Shown here: one piece after another, positions 9,366 through 36,906 of the stretch
Layout: each line of letters starts with the position of its first letter
How positions within the stretch are numbered: the first letter of the stretch is position 1
Origin: Alphaproteobacteria bacterium
GTDB lineage: Bacteria; Pseudomonadota; Alphaproteobacteria; UBA828
Reading direction: 5' to 3'
NCBI GenBank assembly: GCA_965220745.1
Contig: CBDCQT010000005.1
Span: 32,001 to 96,000 of the forward strand
Length of the DNA stretch: 64,000 bases
Notes under the pieces: generated by a model
What the model was told of the DNA's origin: nothing
The model's input: the letters and a program-made list of their open reading frames with translations, nothing else
Databases searched by the model: none
Made by a program: the position numbers and the translations under genes

Positions 9366-9439
9366 CCGGCAAGCGCGGCGTTCCGAGACCCCGAGCCGGT
9401 CACAGACATGATCGATGCACTGGCGCCGGCGCGAGGGGC

Positions 9440-10095: not shown

Positions 10096-11370
10096 CTAAT
10101 AGCCGAGACCCTGAGACATCTGGGCATAGCTGGTGAGAGGGACCGCGCACATCCGATTCCAGTCCGCCTTGTCGATGACGGGCCGATTTAACAGATCGAT
10201 CATATCATCGAATTTGCTGAGCGCGGCACAGCCCACCACCTCAGGCGCCGCTGCCTTGCGGTGTTGCGACCAGGCTCGGTCGCGGGCGTGGCGCCAAAAT
10301 GCGCTGTCGTACGTCGAGCCACAGGAATAGTGCCAACCGACGAACAAGCCGTAACAAAGCATGTTGTTGATGAGAAACCGATTGACCACCGGCGCGTCGC
10401 GCTCAAGATGCTCGACCGCGCGGTTCAGACGTATATGGAGAACCATCCCAATTTGCAACTGGGCGGATACGATCGCCGTTGCTTCGAGAGGCTCCATAAA
10501 GGCCGCAGCATTGCCGATGCGCGCCACCGCACCGTCGAAGATCCGACGGTGGACGAAATTGGGGAACGGAATGACGGCGCGCTGCTCGAACTCGGATACG
10601 CCATCGGCCTCAAGAAACGCGTCAAAGTCCGATTCGACGTCGGTTTGGCTGGAGACATTGCGGTTGAAGATGTACCCGTAGGATGTGTGCACGGTTAGCG
10701 GAATGACGAATACCCAACCATGCGGACGGGCAACCGCACGGGTATACGTATGCTGCAGAACCGGCCGGTCCTGTTCTTCCTCGATGATTGCCGGGCAGCG
10801 GCGGATGATGGCCGTATTGGTGGGGACGAAGGAAATGTCGATGTGGCGCTCGGGCTGGAGTTCCTTGGGAAAGCCGCGGGCATCGAAGACCAGGTCATAG
10901 CGTTCCGGCGCCAGGCCCTCGAGTTCCACTTGGGCACCGCCGTCCACCCTGGCGATGTCGAGTACTTTAGCGTCGATGTGGCGCGCGCGCGTGCTTTCGT
11001 GCAGCAGCTCCCCCATCAGGTCGGCGGAGAGGTGGTAGGCGTAGGAGACCTGCTGCGGCGTGAAGTAGTGCGTGAAGTCTCGATTGCGCCGGCCCCATCC
11101 CTCGAACGCGACGCCGTACTTGCGTGTTCCCTTCAGGCGCTGCTGGACGGTTTCGTGAGGCAGGTTCGTCAGTTTCTGCAATTCCTGAACGAGGCTCGGC
11201 CAGCTGCCTTCGCCGACGCCGATAACCGGGATGCGCGAATCATAAATGTGGTGGAGCTCGTGGTCGCCGTCGGGGAGAAGACTCGTCACGCGGGCAGCCG
11301 CCAGTGACCCTGCGGTTCCCCGCCCGATAACCGCGATCTTCCGCAGAGATTTAGTGCCCGGCTGTATCAT
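10096..11370 (-). CDS. Flavin-dependent tryptophan-halogenase-family enzyme, likely peptidyl brominase (SrpI-like)
   Basis: IGRGTAG, VGEGS, catalytic Lys in GTRKYGVAFEGW, GWVFVIPL and FMEPLEATAI; clustered with a precursor ending in Trp. Confidence 0.88.
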   Translation of the reverse strand: MIQPGTKSLRKIAVIGRGTAGSLAAARVTSLLPDGDHELHHIYDSRIPVIGVGEGSWPSLVQELQKLTNLPHETVQQRLKGTRKYGVAFEGWGRRNRDFTHYFTPQQVSYAYHLSADLMGELLHESTRARHIDAKVLDIARVDGGAQVELEGLAPERYDLVFDARGFPKELQPERHIDISFVPTNTAIIRRCPAIIEEEQDRPVLQHTYTRAVARPHGWVFVIPLTVHTSYGYIFNRNVSSQTDVESDFDAFLEADGVSEFEQRAVIPFPNFVHRRIFDGAVARIGNAAAFMEPLEATAIVSAQLQIGMVLHIRLNRAVEHLERDAPVVNRFLINNMLCYGLFVGWHYSCGSTYDSAFWRHARDRAWSQHRKAAAPEVVGCAALSKFDDMIDLLNRPVIDKADWNRMCAVPLTSYAQMSQGLGY

Positions 11371-14608: not shown

Positions 14609-16819
14609 ATGCTGCGACGCGCGTCAAAGAGGGCTGGGGACAAGGCCGACTCGGACTTCGCGAAACGAAGGGTAACCACGCCCATTCTGTTGCAGATGCA
14701 CGCATCGGAATGTGGGGCCGCCTGCCTCGGCAGCATATTGGCCTACTTCGGTCGCTGGGTGCCACTGACCGAACTTCGCGAAAAATGCGAGGTGAGCCGA
14801 GACGGCAGTAGTGCCGCGAGCATCTTGCGCGCATCCAGGCACTACGGTCTCGAGTGCAATGGCCTCAGCTTACGCGCCGAGCAACTGAAGAAGCTGGAAT
14901 TGCCTCTGATCCTGTTCTGGCAATTCAGTCATTTCGTTGTCTTCGAAGGGTTCGATGGCCGCCATTACCATCTCAATGACCCGTCCATGGGGCGGCGCAG
15001 GCTCTCCGCTGAGGAATTCGAGAAGGATTACAGCGGCATCGCGCTGAGGTTCAAGCGCGGCGCCGATTTCAGCCCCGGCGGCAGGCAGCCCAACCTGTTC
15101 AGGCAACTGAGCGCCTCGCTCGTCGACTCATGGAGCATGCTCACCGGCGTGGTCGCCTGCGGATTCATGTTGACGCTGCTGGCACTGATCGTTCCCGCGT
15201 CTCTCGGTGTGTTCGTGGACGAAGTTCTGGAAAATCACGGGAGCTGGGGCGGATTGGTGGCAGCCCTGCTGGGCGGCGGTGCGCTGGTCTACATCCTGTC
15301 CCTTCTCAGGCACCGGTTCCTAAAGCGGCTTGCCGTCCGGATTTCGGTGATCGGCTACAGCCGGAGCCTGTCGCGGCTGCTGCGATTGCCCGTGGAGTTC
15401 TTCGAGCACAGGCTGGTCGGCGACCTGACCGATCGAGTCTCGTCCGTCGACAGAATAGCGAAGAACCTGACGGACCAGTTTCTCGTGCTCATCATAGACA
15501 TGGCAATGAGCGCCGTGCTGCTCATCGCGATGTTCGCCTACGACGTCGTGCTCACGCTGATCGTGCTGTTGCTGGCGATCGTGCACGGATTGCTTGCGCA
15601 TGGTCTCAACGCGCTCCGGGCTGTTCGAAGCCAGGCGATGAGGCGCGAGCAGGGATTGCTGATCGGCGTGGGCATGCAGATGTTGAGTCATGCCGAGAAC
15701 CTGCGCATGACGGGCGCGGACGACCGCTTCTTCTCGCGCTGGAGCGGTCAACAGGCGCGCGAATTGCATGCGCGCCAGCTTTATTCCGAGCTGGGCTCCG
15801 TCAATACCGCGCTGCCGGGCCTCGTTGCCGTGCTGCGCGCAGCGGCCATCCTGGGCCTCGGGGGCAGCATGGTCATGGCCGGAGACATGACCCTGGGAAC
15901 GCTGGTCGGGTTCTATATCCTGGCAGAGATGTTTCTGGCGCCTGTCGGGCGCTTCCTGGAGTTTGCCGACAGACGCAAGGCGCTCGAAACCGACCTGCAA
16001 CGACTGGATGACATATCCAAAGCCGCACAAGATCCAGTCATCAGCCGCCGAAGTGAGGAATCGGAGTCGATCTCCACGTTCAACGGCCGGCTCCAGCTTG
16101 CAGGCCATCTCGAACTGCGAAACGTCACGTTCGGTTTCAACAAGAGCCGGCCGCCTCTGCTCAAGGACTTCAACCTCGTGCTGAAGCCGGGGCAGCGGGT
16201 TGCCATCGTCGGCCCCAGCGGTTCCGGCAAGTCGACGCTCGCGCGTCTCGTTTCGGGCATCTGTCAGCCCTGGTCGGGCGAAGTGCTGTTCGACGGCCAT
16301 CTTCGGGAGGAGATTCCGGAGGACGTGCTGCGGCGGTCCATTTCCATGGTGGATCAGGAGGTCGTGCTCTTTTCCGCGTCACTGCGGGACAACATCACAT
16401 TGTGGAACCCGGCCGTTCCGGACGAAGCCATCGTCGTCGCGACGCGGGATGCCCAGATCCACGACGAGATCCTGCTCAGGCCGCAGGGATACGCGACCCC
16501 CGTCGAGGAAGGCGGGGTGAATTTCAGCGGCGGCCAGCGGCAGCGGCTGGAAATCGCCCGTGCGCTGGTGGGCAACCCGACGGTAATCATTCTGGACGAG
16601 GCGACCAGCGCCCTCGACGCCGCGACGGAGGAACATGTCGACGACGCCTTGCGGCGCCGCGGCGTCACCTGCCTGATCGTGGCGCACCGGCTGAGCACCG
16701 TGCGGGATTGCGACGAGATCATCGTGCTCGACAAGGGCGCAGAGGTGCAGCGCGGAACGCACGACGCGCTGATCGCGGACAGGGACGGCGCGTACTACAA
16801 GCTGATCATGTCAGGCTGA
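14609..16819 (+). CDS. NHLP bacteriocin export ABC transporter (C39 peptidase/permease/ATPase)
   Basis: Q...ECGAACL, HFVV and LNDP peptidase residues; GPSGSGKST, FSGGQRQR and ILDEATS. Confidence 0.93.
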   Translation: MLRRASKRAGDKADSDFAKRRVTTPILLQMHASECGAACLGSILAYFGRWVPLTELREKCEVSRDGSSAASILRASRHYGLECNGLSLRAEQLKKLELPLILFWQFSHFVVFEGFDGRHYHLNDPSMGRRRLSAEEFEKDYSGIALRFKRGADFSPGGRQPNLFRQLSASLVDSWSMLTGVVACGFMLTLLALIVPASLGVFVDEVLENHGSWGGLVAALLGGGALVYILSLLRHRFLKRLAVRISVIGYSRSLSRLLRLPVEFFEHRLVGDLTDRVSSVDRIAKNLTDQFLVLIIDMAMSAVLLIAMFAYDVVLTLIVLLLAIVHGLLAHGLNALRAVRSQAMRREQGLLIGVGMQMLSHAENLRMTGADDRFFSRWSGQQARELHARQLYSELGSVNTALPGLVAVLRAAAILGLGGSMVMAGDMTLGTLVGFYILAEMFLAPVGRFLEFADRRKALETDLQRLDDISKAAQDPVISRRSEESESISTFNGRLQLAGHLELRNVTFGFNKSRPPLLKDFNLVLKPGQRVAIVGPSGSGKSTLARLVSGICQPWSGEVLFDGHLREEIPEDVLRRSISMVDQEVVLFSASLRDNITLWNPAVPDEAIVVATRDAQIHDEILLRPQGYATPVEEGGVNFSGGQRQRLEIARALVGNPTVIILDEATSALDAATEEHVDDALRRRGVTCLIVAHRLSTVRDCDEIIVLDKGAEVQRGTHDALIADRDGAYYKLIMSG

Positions 16820-19182
16820 TGCGGGCCGGGCCGGAACACACAGCGATCGCTGAGCTCGCCGCCCGCTCCGGTACGTCCGTGCCCTGCGCCGGCAACCTGC
16901 CGGTCAAGCTCGACGACCCGGACAGTGTCTGGTTCATCGATCGGGGCGCCGTCGATCTGTTCTACGTCGAATTCAAGGACGGGGTGGAGCAGGCAGCGCC
17001 GCAGCACCTGCTGCGCCGCGAGTCGGGCAATTTGCTGCCGGGTGTCGCGCCGGACGAGCAGGGCGACGGCAAGGACACGCGGCTCAGCCTGATCGCCAAG
17101 GGATTGCCGGGCACCCTACTGAAACGCCTGCCGGCATCCCTGCTGTCCGAGGCCCATCCGGAAGAGCTGGCGGAGCAGGTCGATACGTGGCTGGTCGCCA
17201 TCACCGACGAGCTGTCGCGTTTCGTTGGCTATCTTCCGCGCAAGACCGCGCTGGCCGAGCCCGGCCTGACTCAGACGCTGGCTCCCTGCACGCTATCCGT
17301 GAGACGCGGCGTGGTGTGGATGTCCGAGCCGTCGCGCGGCGCGAGCCTGTTCATGGACATGATCGATCAGGCGGAATTTGCCGGGGTGGGCGGCGCACAC
17401 GAAGCTGCAATACCGCTGACGCGGACGAGTTGGCTCACCCTGCTGGACGAGGCGACGGTATCGGGCAAATCGACCGAGACACTGGTGCGGCAAGGCCTGC
17501 TGCTGCCGACGCTTGCCTCCTTTCACTCGGTCGCCTTCGCCCTGGAACGCCTCAACCGCCGACTGGCCGTGGTCGATGACGCGAATCTCGAGCGCGCCCG
17601 GGTGGCCAGCCGCCGCACGGCCGAAAAATCTGCCCGACAGCGACTCTTCAATATCTATGACCTGCCGACTGACCGGGATGCCGATGTCGAGGACACGGCT
17701 CTGGCGGATGCCCTGAAGATCATCGGCCGCCACCGGGGCATCGATTTCAGGATTCCGGTTCGCTCGGGGCCTTCCGAGCCTCCGGTCAGCCTCGTCGACA
17801 TTCTCAATGCGTCCGGCGTGCGCGCCCGGCGCGTGAGATTCAAGGACGCGGGCAAATGGTGGCACGGCGACAGCAACGCCATGCTGGCATTCCGCGCCGA
17901 GGACGGCCAGCCCGTCGCGCTGCTACCGGGAACGTTCGGGCGCTACCGGGAAATCGACCCGGTCAGCGGGCGCAGCGTGCGGGTCACGGCGGAGCGCGCC
18001 GGCGCGCTGGAGAACGAAGCCTGGATGTTCTATCGCCCCCTGCCGTCGGGGCGCGTGAAGCCGAGCGACCTGCTGCGGCTCGCCCTGCAAGGCTCGGGCC
18101 CGGACCTCGCGCGGCTGGTGCTTGCCGGGCTTCCGGGGGGTCTCATCAAGTTGCTGCCGGCATTCGCACTCGGATTCGTCGCGAACCATATCGTGGCGGG
18201 CGGAAGCGCCGGAGCGATCTATGCCGCGGCCGCCACGCTGGCGGGGTTCGGCCTGCTTGGCGCGATGCTTCACTTGTTTCAAAGCGCGGCGATGATGCGG
18301 CTCGAGGGGCGCTCGGCGTCGCGGGTCGAAGCCGCCTTCTGGGACCGCCTCATGCGCCTTCCGCCGGCCGTTCTGCACCGCCATCCAGCCGGCGACCTGG
18401 CCATGTCGGGGATGACATTCCAGAATCTTCGCGACGGCCTGCAAGGGGTCGTCGCCGACAGCCTGCTGTCGGTCGTATTTCTGCTTCCGGTCTTCGGGGT
18501 CATGTTCTTCTACGATGCCACGCTAGGCGGCATCGCTCTCGTCTTCAGCCTGGGCTCGCTGTTGGTCACCGTCGCCATCGGGTTGCGCCAGATTTCGCCT
18601 TACGGGCGGATGATCAGTGCGGTACGCCGCGTTGCCGGCCGCCTGTTCCAGATCGTGGGCAGCATCGCCAAGCTGCGCGTGGAAAACGCGGAGGGGTCGG
18701 CGTTCGCCATCTGGGCGCGGGATTATCGCGAGCAGAAACGGGCGGAGCTCGAGCTGGGTGCGCTCGAGGGACATTCGCGGGCATTCGGCGCCGCGCTCCC
18801 CTTCCTAGCCGGCGGCGTGCTGCTTTGCGCAGTGGTCACGGTGGGCGAGCGGAACGTCCCGGTCGGCGACTTTCTCGTCGTTTACATCGTCTTCATCGCC
18901 TTCCAGGCCGCCATCGCCCGCTCGCTGATCGGCAGCCCGCGAATCATGCTGCTCGACGAGGCGACCAACTGGCTCGACAACGAAAGCCAGGCCGAGGTCA
19001 TGCAGAACCTGGCCCTCCTCACCTCCACGCGGATCGTCATCGCCCACCGGCTGTCTACGCTGCAGCAGGCCGACCGTATCTACGTGCTGCGGGCCGGACG
19101 AGTCGTGCAAAGCGGCTCGTTCAACGAACTCATGGAGGTCGACGGGGTTTTCAGGGAACTGGTCAGGAGGCAGGTCGCATGA
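16819..19182 (+). CDS. NHLP ABC transporter permease/ATPase subunit with internal in-frame deletion of the ATPase core
   Basis: TGATG overlap with the previous gene. The TM domain runs straight into IARSLIGSPRIMLLDEAT with no Walker A or signature motif. Confidence 0.8.
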   Translation: MRAGPEHTAIAELAARSGTSVPCAGNLPVKLDDPDSVWFIDRGAVDLFYVEFKDGVEQAAPQHLLRRESGNLLPGVAPDEQGDGKDTRLSLIAKGLPGTLLKRLPASLLSEAHPEELAEQVDTWLVAITDELSRFVGYLPRKTALAEPGLTQTLAPCTLSVRRGVVWMSEPSRGASLFMDMIDQAEFAGVGGAHEAAIPLTRTSWLTLLDEATVSGKSTETLVRQGLLLPTLASFHSVAFALERLNRRLAVVDDANLERARVASRRTAEKSARQRLFNIYDLPTDRDADVEDTALADALKIIGRHRGIDFRIPVRSGPSEPPVSLVDILNASGVRARRVRFKDAGKWWHGDSNAMLAFRAEDGQPVALLPGTFGRYREIDPVSGRSVRVTAERAGALENEAWMFYRPLPSGRVKPSDLLRLALQGSGPDLARLVLAGLPGGLIKLLPAFALGFVANHIVAGGSAGAIYAAAATLAGFGLLGAMLHLFQSAAMMRLEGRSASRVEAAFWDRLMRLPPAVLHRHPAGDLAMSGMTFQNLRDGLQGVVADSLLSVVFLLPVFGVMFFYDATLGGIALVFSLGSLLVTVAIGLRQISPYGRMISAVRRVAGRLFQIVGSIAKLRVENAEGSAFAIWARDYREQKRAELELGALEGHSRAFGAALPFLAGGVLLCAVVTVGERNVPVGDFLVVYIVFIAFQAAIARSLIGSPRIMLLDEATNWLDNESQAEVMQNLALLTSTRIVIAHRLSTLQQADRIYVLRAGRVVQSGSFNELMEVDGVFRELVRRQVA

Positions 19183-19263: not shown

Positions 19264-21648
19264 GTGGACACGCGCGACATGGCAAGGGAGCCGTTCGCAA
19301 CGCGGTTTGCGAAGCGGGTGCTAGGCGCCCGCTGGATCGTCATCGTGGCGTCGGTGCTGGTAGTTGCGCTCGCGGCGATGGGCGTTACGCAGCTCGAGTT
19401 CTCCGCCAACTACCGGATCTTCTTCGACGAGGACAATCCGCAGCTTCTGGGGCTGGAAGCGCTGGAGAACACCTATGGGAAGAACGAGAACGTCGTCTTT
19501 CTGATCGTTCCCGACGATGGCGACGCCACGTCCGAAGACGCGCTCACGGCCGCCGCCTGGCTCACCAAGGCCGCCTGGAACACGCCGTTTTCGCGGCGCG
19601 TCGATTCGCTCGCCAATTTTCAGTACACGACCGCCGACGGCGACGATCTGTACGTGCGGGACCTGGTCGATCTGCAGGAGCTGTCGGACGCCGAGGCGCG
19701 CGCGCGAATCCGCGACATCGCCCTGTCCGACCCGCGTATCGCCGGCAGCATTCTGGGTCTGAACGGCGATGTCAGCGTCGTCAACGTCACCGTCGAGCTG
19801 CCGGAAGACGGCCTGCTGGAGGCTGTGGCCGAGGTTGCCGAATTCGCCAGATCGCTTGCTGCGGAGGCAGAAGAACGATTTCCCGGCATGGACCTCCGCG
19901 TCGTCGGCACGGCCATGGTCAACCAGACGTTCCTGGAAGCCTCGGTCAGCAGCCAGATGATGTTTCTGCCGGCGAGCCTGCTGCTCATGGCCGTGATCCT
20001 TGGCATCCTCACTCGCAGCTGGACGGGCGTTGTGGGAACCGGGATCGTCATCGTCTTTTCCATTCTCGTCTCGGTCGGCTTGGGCGTATGGCTCGGTCTG
20101 CCCTTTTCTCCGCCCGTAACCCCGGCGCCGACCATCGTGCTGATGATCGTCGTGGCGAACTGCGTGCACCTGCTGGTGGCCTTGCAGCAGCGTCTTCGCG
20201 CCGGGGATTCCAAGCGCGATGCCATTGTCGAAGCCGTGAGGCTCAACCTGCATCCGGTGTTCCTGGCGAGCCTCACGACGACGCTCGGATTCCTGAGCAT
20301 GAACTTTTCCGAAGTGCCGCCCTACCGCGATCTCGGCAACTTCGTGGCTATCGGCATCGCGGCCTCCTTCATTCTCTCCGTTACGTTCATGCCGGCCGTG
20401 CTCTCGCTTCTCCCGCTGCGTGCGCCGAAGGACCGCCGGCTTCTGCCGGCCCTGCTCTCGCTTCTTCCGTTTCCTGCCGCGAAGGAGCGCCGGCTCCGCC
20501 TGCCGCACACGAACGTCCTGGCGGACTCCGTGCTCCGCCACAGGAAGGCGCTGTTCCTGGGGTGGGTGGTGTTCGTGCTGGCAATGGCTGCGGCCATTCC
20601 GCGCAACGAGCTCAACGATGTCCTGGTTCATTTCTTCGACAAAGGCGTCGAGTTTCGCCAGGACACCGATTTCATGGACGAGCACCTGAGCGGCAATACC
20701 CTGCTCGAATACTCGCTGGAAGCGCATGCCGAGGGCGGCGCGACCGATCCGCTTTTCCTCGCCGACGTCTCGAATTTCGCCGAGTGGTACCGTGCGCAGG
20801 CGCCGGTCCGTGACGTGGCGGTCATCACCGATACCTTCCGGCAGCTCAACAAGAGCATGCACGGCGACGACCCGGCGGCCTACCGGCTTCCGGAAAGCCA
20901 GGAGCTGGTGGCGCAATACCTGCTGCTTTACGAGCTTTCGCTTCCGCAGGGTCTGGACGTGAACAACCAGATCGACAGATCCAGGTCCGCCACGCGCGTG
21001 TCGGTGTCGGCGGAGACGCTATCGTCGCAAGAGGTGCTCGACCTGAACGCGCACGCCGAGGCGTGGCTAAAGGAAAACGCGCCGCATGTCGCCAGCGTCA
21101 ACAGCACCGGCCCCGCGGCGCTGTTCGCCTACATCGGGCAGCGCAACATCCGCGCCATGTTGATCGGGACGATGGTGGTGCTCCTGGCCATTTCCGCCAT
21201 TCTCCTCTTCGCCTTCCGATCGCTCCGGCTGGGCCTGATCAGCATCGTTCCCAATCTGGTTCCCGCCGCGCTGGGCTTCGGCGTCTGGGGATTGGCGGTC
21301 GGGCAGGTGGGACTCTCGCTCTCCGTCGTGGTGGCCATGACCGTAGGCATTGTCGTGGACGATACGGTGCACTTTCTCAGCAAGTACCGACGCGCGCGGC
21401 AGGAATTGGGCCAGAGCCCCGAAGAAGCGGTGCGTTACGCCTATGACACGGCCGGCCGGGCCGTGTTCACGACGACGATCGTGCTGGTGGCCGGTTTCCT
21501 GATATTCGCGGTCTCTCCGTTCGTCCCCACCGCGCAGGTCGGGATCCTGACCGCGACAATCATTGCCTTTGCGTTCATCGCCGACCTGACGCTGCTGCCG
21601 GTGCTGTTGACTGCGTTGGACCGGAAATCTGCGAAGCCGCGCGCCTGA
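19264..21648 (+). CDS. MMPL/RND-family transporter
   Basis: Two-repeat topology; ASLTTTLGFLS and GIVVDDTVHFL motifs. Confidence 0.9.
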   Translation: MDTRDMAREPFATRFAKRVLGARWIVIVASVLVVALAAMGVTQLEFSANYRIFFDEDNPQLLGLEALENTYGKNENVVFLIVPDDGDATSEDALTAAAWLTKAAWNTPFSRRVDSLANFQYTTADGDDLYVRDLVDLQELSDAEARARIRDIALSDPRIAGSILGLNGDVSVVNVTVELPEDGLLEAVAEVAEFARSLAAEAEERFPGMDLRVVGTAMVNQTFLEASVSSQMMFLPASLLLMAVILGILTRSWTGVVGTGIVIVFSILVSVGLGVWLGLPFSPPVTPAPTIVLMIVVANCVHLLVALQQRLRAGDSKRDAIVEAVRLNLHPVFLASLTTTLGFLSMNFSEVPPYRDLGNFVAIGIAASFILSVTFMPAVLSLLPLRAPKDRRLLPALLSLLPFPAAKERRLRLPHTNVLADSVLRHRKALFLGWVVFVLAMAAAIPRNELNDVLVHFFDKGVEFRQDTDFMDEHLSGNTLLEYSLEAHAEGGATDPLFLADVSNFAEWYRAQAPVRDVAVITDTFRQLNKSMHGDDPAAYRLPESQELVAQYLLLYELSLPQGLDVNNQIDRSRSATRVSVSAETLSSQEVLDLNAHAEAWLKENAPHVASVNSTGPAALFAYIGQRNIRAMLIGTMVVLLAISAILLFAFRSLRLGLISIVPNLVPAALGFGVWGLAVGQVGLSLSVVVAMTVGIVVDDTVHFLSKYRRARQELGQSPEEAVRYAYDTAGRAVFTTTIVLVAGFLIFAVSPFVPTAQVGILTATIIAFAFIADLTLLPVLLTALDRKSAKPRA
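20391..20497 (+). repeat. 54-bp in-frame tandem duplication inside the MMPL gene
   Basis: PAVLSLLPLRAPKDRRLL followed by PALLSLLPFPAAKERRLR; DNA period 54 (20391, 20445). Confidence 0.8.
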
Positions 21649-21938: not shown

Positions 21939-22190
21939 ATGAGAAGTGGCGATGAAATGCTGCAACACATTATCCAGAAGTCCTCTCTGGATTCGGACTT
22001 CAGGCAACAGCTTCTTGCAGACCCCAAGAGTACCATCAGCGAGGAATTGGGCGTCACGATACCCGAGTCGATGACCATCAAGATCCATGAGAGCGACATG
22101 CAGACGGTGCATCTGGCGTTGCCGCCGGATCCGAACATCACCGAAGAGCAGCTCGAAGCGATCTCAGCGGGACTCTGCTGCTGCTGGTAA
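21939..22190 (+). CDS. NHLP/proteusin RiPP precursor, 78-aa leader plus core LCCCW (SrpE-like)
   Basis: DSDFRQQLLADPK...HLALPP...ITEEQLEAISAG|LCCCW; GGGAGG RBS. Confidence 0.95.
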   Translation: MRSGDEMLQHIIQKSSLDSDFRQQLLADPKSTISEELGVTIPESMTIKIHESDMQTVHLALPPDPNITEEQLEAISAGLCCCW

Positions 22191-22299: not shown

Positions 22300-23418
22300 T
22301 TAGGGGGAGACCGCTCCGGAAAGCACCATGAACACGTAGGCCTTCGCTTTTCGCAGCCGATCTCCAGATATGACCAGCTTTATGTGGTGAATGCCACGCA
22401 GCAACACATAACGGCCTGACTTCGCAAAGAGCATTGACGGTGTCGAAACCCAATCGGCAAGCGCTGCAAGCTTCTCCGGGACGACGATGTCCTCATGGCT
22501 CAAGGCTTCCAGGAACGGGTCCCAATCGGTCAGGCCGTCGAGCCAATAGCGCGAATCTTTGGTGTATCTCTGCTTGACGATAAGCGTGAGGCCGAGCGTC
22601 GGGCCGACACCCTCTTCGTGCACGTCAATATTCGCCCCGGCCCTGACAATGTTCGCGCGTTCCCTGAAGCGTGCGATCACGGATTCCACGGCCGAGGTCT
22701 CGCCCGGCCAGCCCGCGTCTTCGAGATAGGAACACGTTTCCCGCCCCGACTTGAATCCCATAATCGCGAGCCGGATTGCCCGTGAGCGGGACGGAAACAC
22801 GCCGAACGAATCCATGCGCGTGTCGTCCGGCTGCGCCAGGTAAGCGCGCTTGACGTTCTCCCGCGTGGCGGCGTTCGCCTCCCAGCCCAGGCAGGAAACG
22901 AGCGCGTCAACCACCGTGGCGGCATCGTCCGCCTGACCGCAGCCGCCCATGATCGGGCGCTCGCCGGGCCGCAGGAACAGCCCCGGCAGCGAACGTTCAC
23001 CGCCCTGCGCCGAGCCGATGTCGTATTCCAGCATCAGCTTGCGGCCGACGATGTCGCGCAGCGGCGAGTCTTCGGCATCCATCTGACCGAACAGCCGTGT
23101 GATTGCACCCGCGGTCTCATCCGTCTTGTCGGCGAGGGCGCGCTCCCGGAAGAACGCGGCAGGCCGGGTGCCGCTCGCGAGCGAGACGCCGAAATCCGCC
23201 TGGGGTTCGCGTTCATGCAGCGGAAGCTCGAAGCCGAAGGGAAGGGCCCCCATCGTGATGGGAAGCGTGCCGGCGCAATCGAGCACGCGCTGCCATTCCC
23301 GATCTCCCACGAGAGTCGTCGAAACCCTGTTGCGGAAGTGCCCGAGCAGATCGCCCATGGTGCCGCCCTCTTCGGCGAGACGGTCCTGAGTGAGCGTGAC
23401 TGCCTCGTCAATGTCCAT
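22300..23418 (-). CDS. Hypothetical RiPP-cluster protein, possibly prenyltransferase (ABBA/LynF-like) fold
   Basis: Directly downstream of YcaO; FGFELPL, MLEYD, AIRL and HHIKL...KAKAY motifs. The fold assignment is inference. Confidence 0.5.
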   Translation of the reverse strand: MDIDEAVTLTQDRLAEEGGTMGDLLGHFRNRVSTTLVGDREWQRVLDCAGTLPITMGALPFGFELPLHEREPQADFGVSLASGTRPAAFFRERALADKTDETAGAITRLFGQMDAEDSPLRDIVGRKLMLEYDIGSAQGGERSLPGLFLRPGERPIMGGCGQADDAATVVDALVSCLGWEANAATRENVKRAYLAQPDDTRMDSFGVFPSRSRAIRLAIMGFKSGRETCSYLEDAGWPGETSAVESVIARFRERANIVRAGANIDVHEEGVGPTLGLTLIVKQRYTKDSRYWLDGLTDWDPFLEALSHEDIVVPEKLAALADWVSTPSMLFAKSGRYVLLRGIHHIKLVISGDRLRKAKAYVFMVLSGAVSP

Positions 23419-23427: not shown

Positions 23428-25746
23428 TCACGCAATCACGGGTGCGGGATTCAGGTCGGCTTCGGCGAGAGGACGCGGTTGGCGGCCCATGCCGACGGGC
23501 ACGTCGTAGAGGCGCCCCGGCGCAAATCGCGCCCAGAAGTGGCGCATGCCCGGCACGATGACCCGCGCCACGGGCATGCCGATGTCGGGCCGGGTCTGAT
23601 CCAGCACCAGGAACTCCATGCCCCTGGCTTCGACGAGCGCGCGGCACAGCTCCACATCGTCGCGCGTGTCCGTCGTCTCGATCGCCGGATAGTACGACGC
23701 CGTGCGGAGCGGCGCGTCGTCCGCCGGCGCCAGCCAGGAGCAATCGGCGAGCCGCGCGGTCTTCCACCACCGGAGTGCCAGCGGATCGTCGATCATGGGC
23801 CGGCCGTCTCCTTTGCCGGGGCGTGGCAGCCAGGTGAGGCACTGGTTCAACTCGCAGAGCGCACGGAGCGCCGCGAGCCGCGGGTCGGCGTGGGCGCCGG
23901 CGCCGTAGATGATGTCCTCGGTCCGGGCGTGCGTGCGGCGCGAGAGCGCGACGAACGCGGGAATGCCGATGTCCGACGTGACGTCGAGCAGCCAGAGCGC
24001 GCGCTCGTAGCGGGCGTATTGCTGCAGGGCGGAAGCGAGGTACGCGTCGTCGAAGCTGGCAAGATCGACCGCCGGCACCCGCAGCCGGTTGTACCACCAG
24101 ATGGCGAACGCATCGCGCTCGACCAGTTCGTAGAAGCCCTGGAGGATGGCCTCTTCCAGCGTGTTGCCCGCGGCGCAGCCGTTGGAATCGGCGATCAGGT
24201 CCGCGGGGCCGCGCTGCTCGGCCGCCATGCCGTAGAGCATCGAGGTCGGCAGGTAGCGATGCCGTTGCCGCGTGAGCGACCACACCGGCGTCCAGTCGCG
24301 CGCGGCGTCGGGGTCGAAGCGCGGAGGCACGATGTTGTACGGATGGCCCTTCGCGTTGATGCCCTTCGCGTTGTCGAGCTGAGCGTCGCTGAAGAGCTGC
24401 ACGTCGTTGGGATGGATCGCCTCGTCGCCCCCGCCGAACTCGACGAACCGCCTGCGGATGCAGATCTCGTCGCCATGACGGGCGCCCGAGTAGCGCTCGA
24501 CCGCCTCGCAAAGGGCGCTGACCTTCGACTGCTCCCGCGTGCTGCCCTTGCCCGCGCTCTTGCTGCGCAGGCTCCGCCTGAGCGAACTCAGGCTCCGGCT
24601 TCTCATGCCGAGATTGCTCCCGGCCCAGTAGACGTGCAGCCAGGGGTCGGTCTCATCGGTCGTGCGCGACAGCCAGGTCACGACCCCGCTGACCGGGCTC
24701 ACCAGGTGGCGGTACTTCGCGAGCGTGACCTCCGGCGCCACGGTGCGCGCGCCGCCGCTGTTGCGATGGGTCTTGGGGCTCGCTTTCAGAGCGAGCGGCA
24801 CCGGCGGGCGATCCGGCCGATGCAACGCGTCGTCGCTGCAGGCGAGGCACTGCGGCCGGCGCATCACGGGATGCTGCGCGCTTGCGAACGTGCCGACGTT
24901 CATCGTGATCGCGTGTTCGTGCAGGGGGGCCGCGTCGTCCAGCACCAGCCACTTGACGATCTCCGCCGCGATCAACCCGTAAAGCGCCTCCAGCACCGCG
25001 GGCTGAGCCGCGAACGGCTTGAAGGCAGCCTCCTCGCCGGCAACGCTGCGCAAGAAGCTGTGGACCTCCTGGTGGCCGCGCAGGCGGCTCGCCAGGCAGT
25101 CACAGCAGGGGCCTTGTCCGTCTGCGCGAAAGACGGGGCCGAACAGCACCTCCATGCCGCGCGGCCGCAGCAGTGTCCACGGCGCTTGCGCCTCGAGTTG
25201 GCGCCGGTTCACCTCAGCGAGGCGGGCGTCGAGATAGTCGTCGCAGACGACGACGGTGAGTGTGGGTTTGCCGGCCCCCGTGCTGACGCCGCTCTCTTGC
25301 AGATGCCGGACCAGGCGGCCGTCGTCGCCTTCGACCGCGATGCGCGATTCCGCGAGCCGCCGCTCGACCCAGCGCGGCGATGCGCCGAGCGACGACCAGT
25401 AGGCTGCCCGGCTCCGCTCCATGCCGTGATCGGCGGAGACGACGTAGCCCTTGGCGGCGAGCGCGGCAATGGTCCCAAGAACGTCCGCCGCGGCGTGGGC
25501 GCCCTCCAGTGCTGCGACGATCTCGTCCTGCGGGTGCCGGCCGTCAAGCAAGGGCAGCAGATCGCAGTGGAGCGCGTCGTGCAGCAGGGTATTGAACGAT
25601 TCCGAAACCAGCAGCGTCTGCCGCTCGCCGATGTCGCGGAACTGCAGGTGCGGGGCGAGCGCGGGACGCGTGACGGCGCCCCGGTCCGCAGGCGTCGTTC
25701 TGGTCAGTATCCCGTGCGGGGGCTGCGTGTCCGTCTGCGCTGGCAT
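23428..25746 (-). CDS. Fused RRE/E1-like/YcaO cyclodehydratase (SrpC-like)
   Basis: GPVF...CCDC, RRPQCLAC, SAGKG, CEAVERYS, SNGCAAGNTLEEAILQGFYELVERDA and PGMRHFWARF. Confidence 0.94.
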   Translation of the reverse strand: MPAQTDTQPPHGILTRTTPADRGAVTRPALAPHLQFRDIGERQTLLVSESFNTLLHDALHCDLLPLLDGRHPQDEIVAALEGAHAAADVLGTIAALAAKGYVVSADHGMERSRAAYWSSLGASPRWVERRLAESRIAVEGDDGRLVRHLQESGVSTGAGKPTLTVVVCDDYLDARLAEVNRRQLEAQAPWTLLRPRGMEVLFGPVFRADGQGPCCDCLASRLRGHQEVHSFLRSVAGEEAAFKPFAAQPAVLEALYGLIAAEIVKWLVLDDAAPLHEHAITMNVGTFASAQHPVMRRPQCLACSDDALHRPDRPPVPLALKASPKTHRNSGGARTVAPEVTLAKYRHLVSPVSGVVTWLSRTTDETDPWLHVYWAGSNLGMRSRSLSSLRRSLRSKSAGKGSTREQSKVSALCEAVERYSGARHGDEICIRRRFVEFGGGDEAIHPNDVQLFSDAQLDNAKGINAKGHPYNIVPPRFDPDAARDWTPVWSLTRQRHRYLPTSMLYGMAAEQRGPADLIADSNGCAAGNTLEEAILQGFYELVERDAFAIWWYNRLRVPAVDLASFDDAYLASALQQYARYERALWLLDVTSDIGIPAFVALSRRTHARTEDIIYGAGAHADPRLAALRALCELNQCLTWLPRPGKGDGRPMIDDPLALRWWKTARLADCSWLAPADDAPLRTASYYPAIETTDTRDDVELCRALVEARGMEFLVLDQTRPDIGMPVARVIVPGMRHFWARFAPGRLYDVPVGMGRQPRPLAEADLNPAPVIA

Positions 25747-25778: not shown

Positions 25779-28175
25779 TCACGCGCACGAACGAAGCGAG
25801 TCGATCCGGGCGGCTGCGCGGGATGCGGTGTCGGTGACCGCCGAGGTCAGCGCGTCGAAATCCTCGTGCCCGCACGCGCTCGCAACGAGAGACCTGACCT
25901 TGGGCCGCGCCTCAGCCGCGTCGAATCCTTCCTCGCCGATGAGGCGCGTGATGCCCTGCAAGTCCCGCCACATGGCCGCAGCCTGCGCCAGGTCCTCGGC
26001 GCCAGCGGCATCGAGCACCGCCGCAGCGCTCGGCGCCGGGTCGTCGAGGGCGGCGTCGGCATTCGTCAACTGCAGGACTCGCGCGGCACGCTCGACATCC
26101 TCCAGCCCGCCACGCATGCGGGCGTAGTTGGAGACGCCCGTTGCGGCCGGGTTTTCGCGCCGCGCACGAAGCTGGGCGATCAGGGACTCGTCCGCAGCGC
26201 ACGCGGCCAGCGCTTCGCCCCGAGCCTCGCCGAAGCGGCGGCCGATATCGGCATCGCCGCACTCGAACACGCAGCGTGCCCTGGTGAGGACGGGAATTCC
26301 GTCGGGAGAACGTTCCCGGCAATGCTCGGCCAGCTCGGACAGCGGCAGCGCAGAAAGGGCCTGCGAGCGGGGCGGAGCCGGGGAGAACAACAGACTGTCG
26401 CGCGCCAGGGCTGTCAGAGACTTTGCGAACTGCCGACACAGACGTTCATTCTCGCCGATCTTCCGGCCGTCGTGGACAAACAGCATGTCAATTGCAACGC
26501 CCGGATAAACGTCCCGGCTTGCGAGATCGCCGAGGAATACGGCAGCGATCCCGCCGTCCTGCAGCGGTCCGGCGAGGTCGACACGGTCCGCAGCCACGGC
26601 GGCCAGCGCGGCGGAAATTGATGCTTCGGCAAGATTAGAGAGCGCGGTCTTCGCCTCGGCCGGGGACAGGTTTCCGCGCACGACGTGCATGCCGATCTGG
26701 AACGCCTTGTCGTTCGACCAGTTCCGCACGATCTCGGCGGCCTCCTTCGCATCGGCCGTTGGCAACTCGGAGACCCGGTCCTTCATCTCCGGAACGCCCA
26801 TTTCGTGCGTCCAATAGAGTCGTGCGAGCCCACGCCGCGCGATCGTTTCGTATTCTTGATCCGGTCCGAATCCTTTCGGCAGGTCGAGATCGGTGAATTC
26901 CCGGTGTTGCAGGTTATCGAGGAGCTCGGAATTGCGTTCGATCCATGTGGCGAGCCGCGGGGCTGCGCCGAAGATTTCTACGATTGCCTCGAAGGCGTCA
27001 GGGCGCGCTGCGGAAAGACGACTGTCGTAGGCGCTCCAGTCATCGATCTGCGGGTAGAAATGCGCGCGCCATTGATCCACCAATGGATCCATCTTCGCGA
27101 ACCACCGCTTCGGCCGCAGAACGATATTCATCATGTCGGCGTAGGTTCCTGGCAAGACCGGGGATTCATCGGAGCCGAGGGCTTGGAGCAGGGGATAGTG
27201 GCGAGACGCTGCCGCGTGATGATCCGCATGGCGCTGCATGTTGAAGAACATCCAGTTGCTGAACTTCCAGTCGGCGCTCCACGAATGGCGCGGCAATACC
27301 TTTTCCCATCGGCCGTTCGGCAGACGGACCCGGCGAAGGCCGTAGTGCTGAAAGTAATTGCTGATCTTCATGGAAAAGACGCAGCAGAGCCCGAGGAAGG
27401 CGAAGACCGGCACCGCCCAGCCGCCGCTCATCCAGAACACCAGTCCGTACCAGCACGCGAGGGCGATGCCGTAGCGCCAGAACGGATTGCTGTAATGCCA
27501 CACGGGCAAACGGCGCCGTGCCAGGCGTTCGCCGACGACTTGCCAGGAATTGGTGAGGTTGCTTACGACTTCCCTGGGGAAATATCTCCAGAAACTTTCC
27601 CCCTTGGGCGCGGACCCAACGTCGTGTGGCGTGCCGACCTTGGCATGGTGAATATAGACATGCTCCGTGGCGTATTGCGGATAGGAGGCAGAGGCGAGGA
27701 GAAACTCCCCGAGCCGTCTTTCCCAGGTCGCGCGCCGATGAACCAGCTCGTGACCGACCACGAATACGGCCTGTGCTTCCATGGTCAACATGATCGCGAG
27801 CAGCACGTCTTCCCATAGGGCGAACTGATCCGCGACAAGGATTTGCCACATGGCGAAGATCAGCGTCGCCGGCCAGAGAAACGCCCAGATCCAGACCGGC
27901 AGATTGTGCCAGAAGAGGCGCCGCTCCGACGTTATCGCCGGGTCCATGTTGCGCCCGTCGACACCGAGCGCCCGGTCAAGCGGGCCCGAAACACCCATGA
28001 AGACGAAGGCCGGCAACAACCACCAGCTGCCATAGATCGCCGCAATAACGATCAGCGGGAATATGCCCAGTGGCAGATAATGCGGCAGGGCGTTGAGAAA
28101 CGACGGCACAATGTGCCGCGTGACGCCAGCCTTGTTCGGGGCCATGTCACCGCCAACGGCCGTGTCTTGCGGCAT
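25779..28175 (-). CDS. AlkB-like membrane diiron monooxygenase/desaturase fused to a degenerate GlnE-like domain
   Basis: His boxes HELVH, EHVYIHH, NYFQHYG and QRHADHH. The C-terminus has GlnE-like LSNLAEA, LGDLASRD...IDMLFV, LTRAR and GGLEDVE. Confidence 0.75.
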   Translation of the reverse strand: MPQDTAVGGDMAPNKAGVTRHIVPSFLNALPHYLPLGIFPLIVIAAIYGSWWLLPAFVFMGVSGPLDRALGVDGRNMDPAITSERRLFWHNLPVWIWAFLWPATLIFAMWQILVADQFALWEDVLLAIMLTMEAQAVFVVGHELVHRRATWERRLGEFLLASASYPQYATEHVYIHHAKVGTPHDVGSAPKGESFWRYFPREVVSNLTNSWQVVGERLARRRLPVWHYSNPFWRYGIALACWYGLVFWMSGGWAVPVFAFLGLCCVFSMKISNYFQHYGLRRVRLPNGRWEKVLPRHSWSADWKFSNWMFFNMQRHADHHAAASRHYPLLQALGSDESPVLPGTYADMMNIVLRPKRWFAKMDPLVDQWRAHFYPQIDDWSAYDSRLSAARPDAFEAIVEIFGAAPRLATWIERNSELLDNLQHREFTDLDLPKGFGPDQEYETIARRGLARLYWTHEMGVPEMKDRVSELPTADAKEAAEIVRNWSNDKAFQIGMHVVRGNLSPAEAKTALSNLAEASISAALAAVAADRVDLAGPLQDGGIAAVFLGDLASRDVYPGVAIDMLFVHDGRKIGENERLCRQFAKSLTALARDSLLFSPAPPRSQALSALPLSELAEHCRERSPDGIPVLTRARCVFECGDADIGRRFGEARGEALAACAADESLIAQLRARRENPAATGVSNYARMRGGLEDVERAARVLQLTNADAALDDPAPSAAAVLDAAGAEDLAQAAAMWRDLQGITRLIGEEGFDAAEARPKVRSLVASACGHEDFDALTSAVTDTASRAAARIDSLRSCA

Positions 28176-28252: not shown

Positions 28253-29554
28253 TCAGGACTCCAATAATTCTACAAGCCGCTCCAGAGCTTCGATACAAAA
28301 GGCAGAGGTCACGGCTTCGGAGCCATGCCCAATTTGTCCTACCGCTCCCCACTTCAATGATTGGTCGCCAAACGCGAGTAGCTCCGGCCAGCTACCGTCC
28401 TCACGTTGCGTACTTGTGAACTCTTCCACCAGGCGTTTCGCGTCGAGCCTTTCAAGGTGTCCGACATTGCATAGCGCCGAGACGGCCTGAGCGGTCTTGA
28501 GGATATTACCATAGCCTCCCTCTTCGTCGCGCAAGTTCAGGATGCGCTCTGCGAGGATCGGGCGCGAGCGTTCGAGGGCGGGCGCCGCGCGGATCATGGC
28601 GCGGGCGATTGCATAACAGATCGCGGCCGTGTCGGGATACCACTTGGAGGAGCCTTCGAGTCTGTCTTCAGCAACCAATTTTTCCAGCCACCGTTGGGCA
28701 TCCCTCGTCTCGGGGCGGTCGCCGAGATAGGCGATGACGTTCGCATTGACGACGGGGTCGGCTTCGATGCGAAAGGGCGCCACGACGTCGGGTTCGCCTG
28801 CCGCCAGCACCCAGGTCGTGAACAGCCCTTTCTCGTCGCGGTTCGCCAATATCGCCGGAACGTTTCGTCCCAGAAGAATCCAGGGATGGGTCCCGATGAC
28901 AAGCGAGCAGAGTGTCGTGCTATCGAGGTCCTGAGGCAGATGGCGGTAGTAGCGCCACAGCCCCGGATACTCGATGGCATCGGCGAGATACGCCCTTGTG
29001 GCGGTGCAAATGGCCTTGGCCCGCGCGTCGCCGCAACGTTCCAGGGCAAGCACGCAGAGGCCGGAAACGAAGGCAGGTCTTTCGAAATGCCGGGGTATAT
29101 CCGGGTCGGCGATGTTGAACCGGATGCAGTGCCAGGCGCCGTTTTCGTCAATTGCGGTTTCCAGGAAATCGAGACCGCGGCGGATGCTCTCTCTGCCCGC
29201 TCTTGCAAGTGCCGCGGAGGTAGCAGCGTCCTCTCGGGTTTCCGCCTGTTCAGGGGCGGGGGGGCGACGCAGCGGCGCGGGGTCGTAGAGCGTCTTGCGA
29301 AGGAACGCGAGCGATGCTGCGCCGGTTCTTGCCGCCTCCCGTTCTTCCTCACTGAGTTTGCTGCGCGGTGGAAGCACCAGATGTATCGCGGTATCGGTTT
29401 CTTCGTGCACGTGAATCTCATGATCCTCGGCCAGAGTTATGCCGAGTTCCCTTTCGATAGTTTCCTTGGGCTTTACGAGAAGACGCGCGCGAAAATCGGC
29501 ATCTTCTCCAGCCCTTGATAGGAGGAGTGCTTCCGCGTCAATAGGTTTCCTCAC
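28253..29554 (-). CDS. NHLP leader domain fused to a class II terpene cyclase/prenyltransferase-repeat (alpha6/alpha6) domain
   Basis: Residues 1-78 align without gaps to the precursor leader; then DENGAW, DLDST, DPVVNAN, QREDGSW and GSEAVTSA. GGAGG RBS. Confidence 0.75.
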   Translation of the reverse strand: MRKPIDAEALLLSRAGEDADFRARLLVKPKETIERELGITLAEDHEIHVHEETDTAIHLVLPPRSKLSEEEREAARTGAASLAFLRKTLYDPAPLRRPPAPEQAETREDAATSAALARAGRESIRRGLDFLETAIDENGAWHCIRFNIADPDIPRHFERPAFVSGLCVLALERCGDARAKAICTATRAYLADAIEYPGLWRYYRHLPQDLDSTTLCSLVIGTHPWILLGRNVPAILANRDEKGLFTTWVLAAGEPDVVAPFRIEADPVVNANVIAYLGDRPETRDAQRWLEKLVAEDRLEGSSKWYPDTAAICYAIARAMIRAAPALERSRPILAERILNLRDEEGGYGNILKTAQAVSALCNVGHLERLDAKRLVEEFTSTQREDGSWPELLAFGDQSLKWGAVGQIGHGSEAVTSAFCIEALERLVELLES

Positions 29555-33047: not shown

Positions 33048-33499
33048 TCGCGGCCGCGCGGGAGCTGGGTCGAGCTGCTGCCCCAGCACCCGGCAAGCGC
33101 GGCGTTCCGAGACCCCGAGCCGGTCACAGACATGATCGATGCACTGGCGCCGGCGCGAGGGGCTTAGAAGTTTCCCCCTGCGGCCTCTTTGAGAATCTGC
33201 TTGTCCAGCGTCAGATCGGAGACCGCACGGCGCAGCCGCTCGTTCTCCTTCTCGAGCTCCTTCAAACGGCGGAGCTGATCGCCGCTCATCCCGGCATACT
33301 CCTTGCGCCAGCGGTAGAAGGTAACCTCGCTGATCCCAAGCTCGCGGATCGCGTCCGCCATCGACATGCCCTGGCCGTTCAGAACCTCAGCCCGCCGCAG
33401 CAGGCTCACGATCTCCTCGGGCTTGTAACGCTTCCTTGCCATCGTCGGTCCTCCTCTTTCCATAACCTAAGGGTGGACCAACTCGATGGGGGAGGATCA
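33047..33499 (-). mobile_element. IS3-family partial copy C (left end, orfA 33164-33442)
   Basis: Matches copies A/D; small deletions near the junction with copy B. Confidence 0.88.
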
Positions 33500-33536: not shown

Positions 33537-34793
33537 CTACGCTGCGGCCGCGGTATCTGCGATGCCTGTCATCAGCGCCTCGATCCGATCGGCGATCTTC
33601 TGCGCGGGCTCGCGAAGCTGGGCGATGGTCCAGTCGGCGGCATATCCCTGGGTGACGTCGTTGGGCCGGGCGTGGTTGACCAGCCGCTTGGTGAGCGAGG
33701 GGGGCAGCATCAGCTCGCGCTCGGCGACGGTGATGAAGCTGTTGCGCAGGCCGTGGAACCAGAACTTGGCACCGCCGGCCTTGCCGATGCGGTCGTAGAG
33801 ATGATGCGGATCCTGGACATGGCCAGTGGCGCTGGTCGGCGACGGGAACACCCAATCGCGGACGCCTTCGGGAAGATCCACGGCGGCGGTCTGGCGACGC
33901 TCAAGAATTGAGGCGAGCTGATCGGTGATGGGGAGCTCCAGGGGCACGCCGGTCTTGGTCTCCTCGACCCGGAAGGTGAGCGCGTCCATGTCGACCCGCT
34001 CCCAGCGGAGCGTCAGCACCTCGTCCCGGCGCATGCCGGTGTAGAGCCCGAACCAGAGAGCGTCGCGGATCGCCGGGTTGTTGACTTCGGCCTCGATCCC
34101 GGCGCGCCAGCAGGGCAGCACCTCGGACGGTGCCGAAATCTTGCGCCGCGCCTTGCGGTGGAACTTGCCGCCGCCGGCGAGCCAGAGATCGACCGGGTTG
34201 CGCAGCCCGTCATGGTCGACGCAGGGTCGGCGGTAGATCGAGCGCAGCAGCGACATCGCCCGGTTGGCGGCCGACCAGCCATGATCGGCGGTGATGCCGT
34301 TGAACCGGGCCTCGACGTCGGCACGGCCGATGGCGTCGAGCGGGCGGGGGAGCCAGTCGCCGAGATACCGGTTGGCCTCGTAGCGGTAGAGCTCGTTGGT
34401 CCGCTTCGAGCGGTCGGGGTTTGCGGCCATGTATTGCTCGAAGGTATCGCCGAGCGTGGGCATCCCCCGGGCCTCGGCGCGCTCTCCTGCCGGATCGTCG
34501 CCGCCGGCAACCTTGCCGAGAAGCTCCTGCGCCTTCCGCCGCGCCTGGTCGGCGGTGACCGGGCCGTAGCGGCCGATCACCACCCGCTTGTTGGGCGCCT
34601 TCCTGCCGCCGTCGCCGCTCCGGTAGTTGACGATGAAGGCCTTGGTCCCGGAGGGATGGATGCGGACCCCGAAACCCGTGAGCTTCGCGTCCCACGCGAT
34701 CCACGACTTCTCGCCCGGCTTCAGGGCATCGACGGTCCGCTTGGTGAGGTTCGCGCGCACCCTCGCGGTGCGTTTTCCGGTGCTGGTGTCCAT
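33537..34793 (-). CDS. Tyrosine integrase of the island
   Basis: WDAKLTGFGVRI arm domain; TGMRRDE, ETKTG, HGLR, VNH and TQGY. Confidence 0.92.
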   Translation of the reverse strand: MDTSTGKRTARVRANLTKRTVDALKPGEKSWIAWDAKLTGFGVRIHPSGTKAFIVNYRSGDGGRKAPNKRVVIGRYGPVTADQARRKAQELLGKVAGGDDPAGERAEARGMPTLGDTFEQYMAANPDRSKRTNELYRYEANRYLGDWLPRPLDAIGRADVEARFNGITADHGWSAANRAMSLLRSIYRRPCVDHDGLRNPVDLWLAGGGKFHRKARRKISAPSEVLPCWRAGIEAEVNNPAIRDALWFGLYTGMRRDEVLTLRWERVDMDALTFRVEETKTGVPLELPITDQLASILERRQTAAVDLPEGVRDWVFPSPTSATGHVQDPHHLYDRIGKAGGAKFWFHGLRNSFITVAERELMLPPSLTKRLVNHARPNDVTQGYAADWTIAQLREPAQKIADRIEALMTGIADTAAAA

Positions 34794-35837: not shown

Positions 35838-36013
35838 AAACTGAAGACAGCCCTGGGTAGCGTTCCGAAAGAATTGTTGATGAGTGCCCTGACTCTCTCA
35901 TATATGCATTTCAGGCATTTTATCCATAAGACTAACGCATAGTGAATCGCTGCATGTCTCAGCCGAGAACGGAGACGGGTGACCTGCCCCCGTCGACTGG
36001 TCCAGGTCGAATG

Positions 36014-36832: not shown

Positions 36833-36906
36833 CCGGCAAGCGCGGCGTTCCGAGACCCCGAGCCGGTCACAGACATGATCGATGCACTGGCGCCGGCGCG
36901 AGGGGC

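Follow-up and report, generated by a model that had tools for sequence, protein, structure and literature searches.

Positions 28253 to 29554 (minus strand) of a 64,000-nucleotide stretch of contig CBDCQT010000005.1 from an alphaproteobacterial assembly (GCA_965220745.1), the whole of which is called the window here, hold a gene that raises a simple question: what does an enzyme resembling a class II terpene cyclase do with the leader of a peptide natural product at its amino terminus? The gene encodes 433 amino acids plus stop, arranged as a domain like the leader peptides that resemble nitrile hydratase (NHLPs), a conserved linker and a class II terpene-cyclase-like toroid. It is a core gene of the srp cluster, which directs a sponge-derived proteusin, a peptide made on the ribosome and modified after translation (RiPP), and of which the window carries a copy. 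Sequence, structural models and analogy with known enzymes suggest that cyclisation of a peptide-bound prenyl group is its most likely function.

The initial annotation had described the gene as a RiPP leader fused, apparently uncleavably, to a terpene-cyclase-like domain. The open reading frame (ORF) is real: it lies on the minus strand, begins with GTG, encodes 433 residues and has a GGAGGAG Shine-Dalgarno sequence just 5' of it. Residues 1-78 (29321..29554, minus strand) are a paralogue of the NHLP leader and end at the invariant Gly78. Their counterpart in the window is a separate SrpE-like precursor of 83 residues (21939..22190, plus strand), made up of an NHLP leader, AG and the core LCCCW. 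The ungapped 78-residue match reported between the two was recovered, with 29 identities, or the claimed 30 when the GTG start is read as Met, and Gly78 is common to both. In a single BLASTP comparison, the leader part and the precursor shared 28 of 68 residues without gaps (E 6e-18), so at the sequence level the resemblance is far above chance. The NHLP leader model TIGR03793 matched residues 7-74 with an E of 2.1e-13 and 49.9 bits, narrowly missing its cut-off of 50.9, PF02979 scored 24.9 on the leader part against a cut-off of 27.2, and the solution structure of the NHLP MprE7 (PDB 8tb1) matched at E 9.5e-6. Despite the missed family cut-offs, the NHLP homology of residues 1-78 is clear from these alignments.

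The fused leader differs from the precursor at the recognition positions. The residues quoted in the initial annotation were correct, namely I67-TEEQ-L72-EA-I75-SAG in the precursor and L67-SEEE-R72-EA-A75-RTG in the fusion. Among 40 orthologues of the fusion, residue 67 is Leu or Phe, Arg72 occupies position -7, where L(X)4L has its second Leu, in all 40, and Ala75 occupies position -4 in 39. The motif thus reads (L/F)(X)4R, and two of the three hydrophobic positions used by C39 peptidases are lost in 39 to 40 of the 40 orthologues. Position -2 is Thr, and helix alpha-1 also differs between the fused leader and the precursor. According to the accessible text of two studies (PMC12455567, PMC12537861), the RiPP recognition element (RRE) of the YcaO enzyme needs both L(X)4L and helix alpha-1 of NHLPs, and the halogenase SrpI needs L(X)4L, which is its main contact, in a mode of binding likened there to that of leaders by C39 proteases. 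The loss of L(X)4L argues against the canonical docking of the fused leader on the YcaO RRE that had been envisaged. We infer from these substitutions that the domain is neither cleaved nor bound canonically by the RRE or SrpI. Because both L(X)4L and the C39 hydrophobic positions are lost, it would be a permanent, uncleaved targeting module; a docking role is plausible but unproven.

If the leader still worked as a leader, the C39 ABC exporter would recognise the protein, cleave it after Gly78 and export it, and the cyclase would be extracytoplasmic. Two observations fit such export: all 40 orthologues have Gly78, and in 56 of the 80 loci described below the second ABC exporter gene stands immediately upstream of the fusion gene in the same orientation. 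The Ala at -4 and Arg at -7, in place of Ile and Leu, and the Thr at -2 speak against it. So do the residues beyond Gly78. The linker (residues 79-112, 29219..29320, minus strand) lies where the core peptide would be, and its S81, L85, T88, D91-P94 and R97 are invariant in the 40 orthologues, as in a folded linker. A folded toroid of 355 residues would also be an implausible cargo for a peptide exporter, and export of this kind is very improbable.

The remainder of the protein (residues 113-433, 28256..29218, minus strand) is predicted to form a single alpha/alpha-toroid, the beta domain of terpene cyclases. The segments DENGAW, QREDGSW, DLDST and DPVVNAN, quoted in the initial annotation, are all found in the translation, and the proposed assignment to class II beta domains of the drimenyl-diphosphate-synthase/MstE type was borne out by sequence, profile and Foldseek matches. 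As a single sequence, the protein matched drimenol synthase 9mhs (AsDMS) at E 6.6e-5, with HLPQDLDSTT aligned to NFPDDLDTTS. A profile of 68 family members matched 9mhs (2.7e-29), squalene-hopene cyclase (SHC; 1.9e-24), AstC (4e-20) and MstE (2.9e-6), as well as monodomain SHC-like proteins and SsDMS. The AlphaFold2 model of the fusion protein (pLDDT 86.9, pTM 0.79) gave 55 Foldseek matches at E <= 0.001; AsDMS came first (E 2.8e-12), followed by MstE (E 4.6e-9, TMt 0.66), and monodomain SHC-like proteins, SsDMS and SHC were also among the top matches. Two other readings of the toroid, as a LanC-like structure or a protein-prenyltransferase beta subunit, were rejected because neither occurred among the listed fold and profile matches. 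Taken together, the sequence and the predicted structure leave the assignment of the C-terminal domain to the class II cyclase fold well supported.

Is the toroid an enzyme? Its DLDSTT motif (D209-T214, 28913..28930, minus strand) is of the DxDD type, and the middle residue, D211, is aligned with D323 of AsDMS, the general acid within that enzyme's DXDT motif according to the available text of PMC12232559. At the same place the consensus of the wider cyclase family is LPPDLDDTA. A non-catalytic protein, such as a leader decoy, a regulator, or a lipid-binding or immunity protein that holds the product in its toroid, is rather improbable. Two observations favour it: the canonical DxDD has become DLDS, and the curated cyclase models stay below their cut-offs (PF13243 at 24.4 bits against 26.1, TIGR01787 at 14.7 against 322.7), with only one QW-like segment matched by family models. 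Against it, the general-acid Asp and its surroundings are conserved, D209, L210, D211 and S212 being the same in all 40 orthologues. In AsDMS, DxDT variants of the motif support activity, as the same source states (PMC12232559). A prenyltransferase-like partner conserved together with the cyclase, and fused relatives of the pair, also point to catalysis.

More than 1000 database clusters match the fusion protein at E <= 0.001, and the 120 matches listed are 73-100% identical to it and almost all 433 residues long. In contigs taken at one genome per species, 178 stretches encode a relative, and the best 80 of these were analysed. All 80 loci carry the fusion, at about 433 residues and 68-86% identity, in metagenome-assembled genomes labelled Alpha-, Gamma- and Deltaproteobacteria, Nitrospirota, Nitrospinota, Acidobacteriota, Gemmatimonadota, Binatia and Latescibacterota. 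An artefact of assembly or of fusion was considered and rejected, because the match begins at residue 1 in 69 of these 80 independent loci. The window's own genome holds a single copy of the gene.

The company of the gene is equally constant. Of the loci, 49 extend at least 9 kb to either side of the fusion gene; among these, the gene for a 372-residue protein was present in 48, YcaO in 47, a separate precursor in 44, the halogenase in 43, and a desaturase fusion and the second ABC gene in 42 each. The precursors end in LCCCW in 61 of 64 cases and in W/MCCCG variants in the other 3. Directly downstream of the fusion gene, the 80 loci have the desaturase fusion (42), YcaO (28) or the 372-residue gene (7). 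A DNA contig (run X5) in which the start of the 372-residue gene meets the end of the fusion gene (joint 23419/28279, 4859 nucleotides skipped) fits cluster variants of the last kind. A second variant of the desaturase fusion, about 50-55% identical, lies elsewhere in some loci.

These neighbours are those of srp. The window encodes a Trp halogenase and a YcaO cyclodehydratase along with an NHLP precursor whose core is LCCCW. In the published system, as far as the accessible text goes, the SrpE core is LCCCW, the YcaO protein SrpC forms three thiazolines, and SrpI brominates the C-terminal Trp (PMC10858898, PMC10286304). The available part of a preprint describes a 252-bp precursor gene that is highly transcribed and occurs across phyla in sponges, and calls the ecological role of the compounds elusive; the precursor gene of the window is likewise 252 bp long.

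The most constant neighbour, the 372-residue protein (22300..23418, minus strand), is the last gene of the operon that the fusion gene opens, and has about 1000 close relatives. Its model (pLDDT 88.1, pTM 0.89) shows five alpha-beta-beta-alpha (ABBA) units. Every Foldseek match listed for it was an ABBA aromatic prenyltransferase (E 1.3e-5 to 6e-4, TM 0.33-0.53), including AmbP1, 6-DMATS, EpzP, NphB/Orf2, IptA, PriB, CloQ and FgaPT2. By its predicted fold the protein is therefore ABBA-prenyltransferase-like. A second line of evidence comes from fused relatives. In a 670-residue protein (P0205), the N-terminal half can be aligned to the whole of the 372-residue protein (E 5.4e-9), and the C-terminal half is a homologue of the fusion's toroid. 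A hidden Markov model of the 372-residue orthologues found, among 150 representatives, this protein (1.3e-9) and one other (P0260, 3.6e-5), and none of the other 148.

Several known systems resemble parts of this arrangement. The best match in both sequence and fold, AsDMS of Aquimarina spongiae (9mhs, 9m7d), has the same single beta-domain fold and a DxD(T/S)T motif, but its N-terminal domain is a haloacid dehalogenase phosphatase and not an NHLP, it acts on free farnesyl diphosphate (FPP), and its identity to the fusion is 18-19%. MstE (6sbb-6sbg) is likewise a stand-alone toroid and cyclises a prenyl chain already placed on an aromatic acceptor; it has no leader domain, takes a small-molecule substrate and is a weak sequence match, its profile E being the value given above. 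The closest analogy in chemistry is offered by the prenyltransferase-cyclases NctPC, with an ABBA P domain, and ChrPC, with a P domain like trans-isoprenyl diphosphate synthases. The available text of a review (PMC13290415) states that they prenylate Trp and then cyclise the chain, and credits the description of RiPP prenyltransferase-cyclases to Hubrich et al. in 2024. The likeness to srp, an MstE-like cyclase acting on a prenylated Trp of a ribosomal peptide, is thus drawn from description only. The fusion, too, is an MstE-like cyclase encoded beside a RiPP precursor with a Trp in its core. The fusion protein does not unite P and C in one polypeptide; such fused forms occur among its relatives, P0205 and P0260 having a P-C layout like that of NctPC. 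In srp, P and C are separate genes (22300-23418 and 28253-29554) and C carries the leader-like domain. A precedent for the site of prenylation is PalQ, which prenylates the C-terminal Trp of an NHLP precursor, according to the accessible text of PMC10853753.

The order of the two steps could be the reverse, with the cyclase first converting an unattached prenyl diphosphate (such as FPP, to drimenyl diphosphate) and the ABBA-fold protein then transferring the pre-cyclised group to the peptide. The closest solved relatives, AsDMS, SsDMS and AstC, do form drimenyl diphosphate, and K304-W305 of the fusion is aligned with the AsDMS phosphate ligands R415-Y416. In the pairwise alignment, whose loop regions are uncertain, AsDMS R368 and R370 lie opposite E254 and D256. 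NctPC, in the accessible text of PMC13290415, transfers before it cyclises, and a leader-like domain has no obvious use in a small-molecule enzyme. A free diphosphate as the substrate is unlikely on this balance.

The reading slightly favoured here is that the fusion is a core srp enzyme, a class II cyclase with Asp211 as general acid and a permanent paralogue of the leader, that cyclises a prenyl chain on the SrpE core. In this pathway YcaO would form thiazolines in the LCCCW core and the halogenase would brominate the C-terminal Trp. The 372-residue ABBA-fold protein would add a polyprenyl chain to the core, probably on that Trp, and the fusion cyclase would then protonate the terminal double bond and cyclise the chain. 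An AlkB-type enzyme and an MMPL transporter could oxidise and export the greasy product. The leader-like domain would serve as a built-in targeting module that docks the cyclase to the precursor or to another protein of the cluster.

Relatives without a leader show where the fused domain may have come from. At E <= 0.001, an exhaustive search with residues 100-433 gave 812 representatives. Bare proteins of some 320 residues are numerous among them, and in some others the toroid is joined to P450, acyltransferase, sulfotransferase-like or weakly DMATS-like domains. Metagenome contigs contained 103 relatives, of which the best 80 were analysed; 20 of them are srp-type fusions with the leader directly upstream. 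The initial annotation had expected homologues to keep the leader and to be linked to LCCCW clusters. This holds for the orthologues, yet distant homologues without a leader exist, and because they do, the leader is an add-on specific to srp clusters. Leaderless toroids found by prenyltransferase-like genes, NHLP precursors or both are 36-45% identical to the fusion. In five loci (L082, L092, L096, L118 and L122) the toroid (39-45% identity) lies beside NHLP precursor genes, and in the first three a prenyltransferase-like gene, 30-31% identical to the 372-residue protein, is directly upstream. Such a gene also precedes the toroid in L103-L105, with no precursor on the available piece of sequence. 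All 10 precursor ORFs of the five loci have a Trp in a short core (YGMMWG, FGMMWG, GDIWSE.., EDVWTPW.., VFVW, LTIGIW), and the three scanned, two from L096 and one from L122, scored above the Pfam NHase_alpha cut-off.

In L122 the precursor and toroid genes share a strand, the precursor gene sitting about 60 nucleotides upstream, and for this reason an srp-type fusion could have arisen simply by loss of the core and the stop codon. The fused leaders are not recent copies of SrpE, because they are on average only 34% identical to SrpE leaders; they are 43% identical to the L082 type and 37% to the L122 type. A tree of leader domains (73 rows, 78 columns, three groups) gave a trivial split, with one mis-anchored row and long branches meeting. 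A search of the Atlas with residues 1-95 found only NHLP-type clusters, with scores of 0.83 or less, and gave no lead to further leader-enzyme fusions. Two other observations were made among these loci. At L082:4600-6700, upstream of the leaderless prenyltransferase-cyclase cluster, a repeat array encodes ...GPSPRGRGN...SIPAWAGKP...VHPRVGGET... in several frames and may be CRISPR-like or of the repetitive extragenic palindrome (REP) type. At L137:401-1585, a toroid 33% identical to the fusion is preceded, about 276 nucleotides upstream, by a weak NHLP-like match (30%); this could be a further pair of precursor and cyclase, or a fusion from another habitat.

Several points weigh against cyclisation on the peptide. 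The accessible portions of the published srp work report only thiazolines and bromination. The nearest solved relatives use free FPP, and the alignment of K304 with R415 makes a diphosphate substrate possible. The third position of the fusion motif is Ser, neither Asp nor Thr. For the proposed transferase, the resemblance to prenyltransferases is one of predicted fold, within the TM range given above; the protein matched no Pfam family, and in a profile search of the PDB its family gave matches only in the toroid part of the fused rows. The bare toroids of related clusters evidently function without a leader, which leaves the need for docking unexplained. The modelled complex of the whole fusion with the precursor gives weak support to docking: it scored 0.36 (runs 0.36, 0.03 and 0.36; best of three controls 0.00), with at least 86% of contacts agreeing between runs and a partner pLDDT of at least 68. 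The model came with no reported interface or contacts. In calibration, 58 of 80 solved complexes attained the mark, as did 2 of 110 mismatched pairs; those doing so at a score of 0.60 or less comprised only 7 of the 80 solved complexes and both passing mismatches. Finally, the loss of part of the second ABC subunit suggests that the copy of the cluster in the window may be decaying.

How new would such an enzyme be? The initial annotation knew of no characterised enzyme with this architecture. A literature search likewise found no description of a leader-cyclase fusion, the primary srp paper (JACS 2021) and Hubrich et al. 2024 lying outside its scope. Terpene cyclisation on a RiPP does have a precedent in NctPC and ChrPC, as far as the review text goes, and by analogy the proposed chemistry would thus not be new in kind. 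What is new is the architecture, in which the cyclase is split from the transferase and carries a degenerate leader copy, in a cluster for thiazolines and bromo-Trp. The leader-like part shares with SrpE and other NHLP precursors (TIGR03793, 8tb1) the fold signature, the length and the Gly at 78. The protein departs from them in having a 355-residue enzyme after Gly78 in place of a five-residue core, and an Arg where L(X)4L has its second Leu.

A parallel is found in engineered proteins that carry a leader covalently joined to LctM or LynD, both RiPP tailoring enzymes. These artificial constructs depend on the enzyme's own site for binding a leader; we know of no engineered leader fusion in a terpene cyclase. 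A natural equivalent of this leader-in-cis arrangement is a tentative possibility. The leader-like domain would pair with the precursor's structured NHLP nucleus, or with a partner enzyme that binds leaders, and so guide an otherwise bare cyclase to its substrate, and the product would be a tris-thiazoline peptide that is brominated and carries a cyclised, oxidised terpene. If this were true, it would add a new mode of substrate recognition to those of RiPP enzymes, and the leader-tagged cyclase, as a natural leader-enzyme attachment, would be relevant to the engineering of lipidated peptides. The srp product would also be one made by many phyla of sponge symbionts; srp clusters rank with the most widespread peptide clusters of sponge microbiomes and with the most highly transcribed, according to the available part of the preprint. 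The combination of a conserved cyclase with an AlkB-type oxygenase, a lipid-type transporter and a prenyltransferase-like protein predicts a terpenylated product, and with it a definite mass and class of structure for chemists to seek.

The other genes of the cluster in the window are arranged in two groups and a separate halogenase. On the minus strand, the fusion gene is the first of an operon and is followed by a 798-residue protein with a membrane FA_desaturase/AlkB-type domain and a GlnE-like region (25779..28175), the SrpC-like YcaO cyclodehydratase with leader-binding and E1-like domains (772 residues, 23428..25746) and the prenyltransferase-like gene, with gaps of 77, 32 and 9 nucleotides. 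The SrpI-like flavin-dependent Trp halogenase (424 residues) lies at 10096..11370, also on the minus strand. The plus strand carries, in order, a HlyD-like adaptor of 207 residues (13973-14596), which matches only positions 6-55 of the 421-position NHLP HlyD model, an NHLP-system ABC exporter with a C39 peptidase domain (14609..16819), a second NHLP-system ABC subunit of uncertain start (16819..19182), an MMPL/RND transporter (HAE3, HpnN-like; 19264..21648) and the precursor ending in EAISAG-LCCCW. About 189 residues of the ATPase domain, from Walker A to the signature region, are missing from the second ABC subunit when it is compared with srp loci L012, L010, L022 and L002, which have some 560-570 extra bases between the two matching parts of the gene. 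This deletion suggests that the exporter copy in the window may be inactive.

In a metatranscriptome (run X20), short contigs 90-99% alike covered 28 of 30 bins of the operon, although such libraries may hold DNA. One of these contigs lies inside the fusion gene (28623-28827) and is not proof of its transcription. A second RNA run (X23) gave no matching contigs for the operon. Two copies of an insertion sequence (IS) flank the srp region (8507-9651 and 35974-37118), with a partial copy at 33076-33375; the transposase ORFs of the two flanking copies (819 nucleotides) are identical at 819 of 819 bases. Tyrosine integrases are encoded at 2144-3316 and 33537-34793. The whole looks like a composite transposon or an island around srp, an arrangement that fits the spread of the cluster across phyla.

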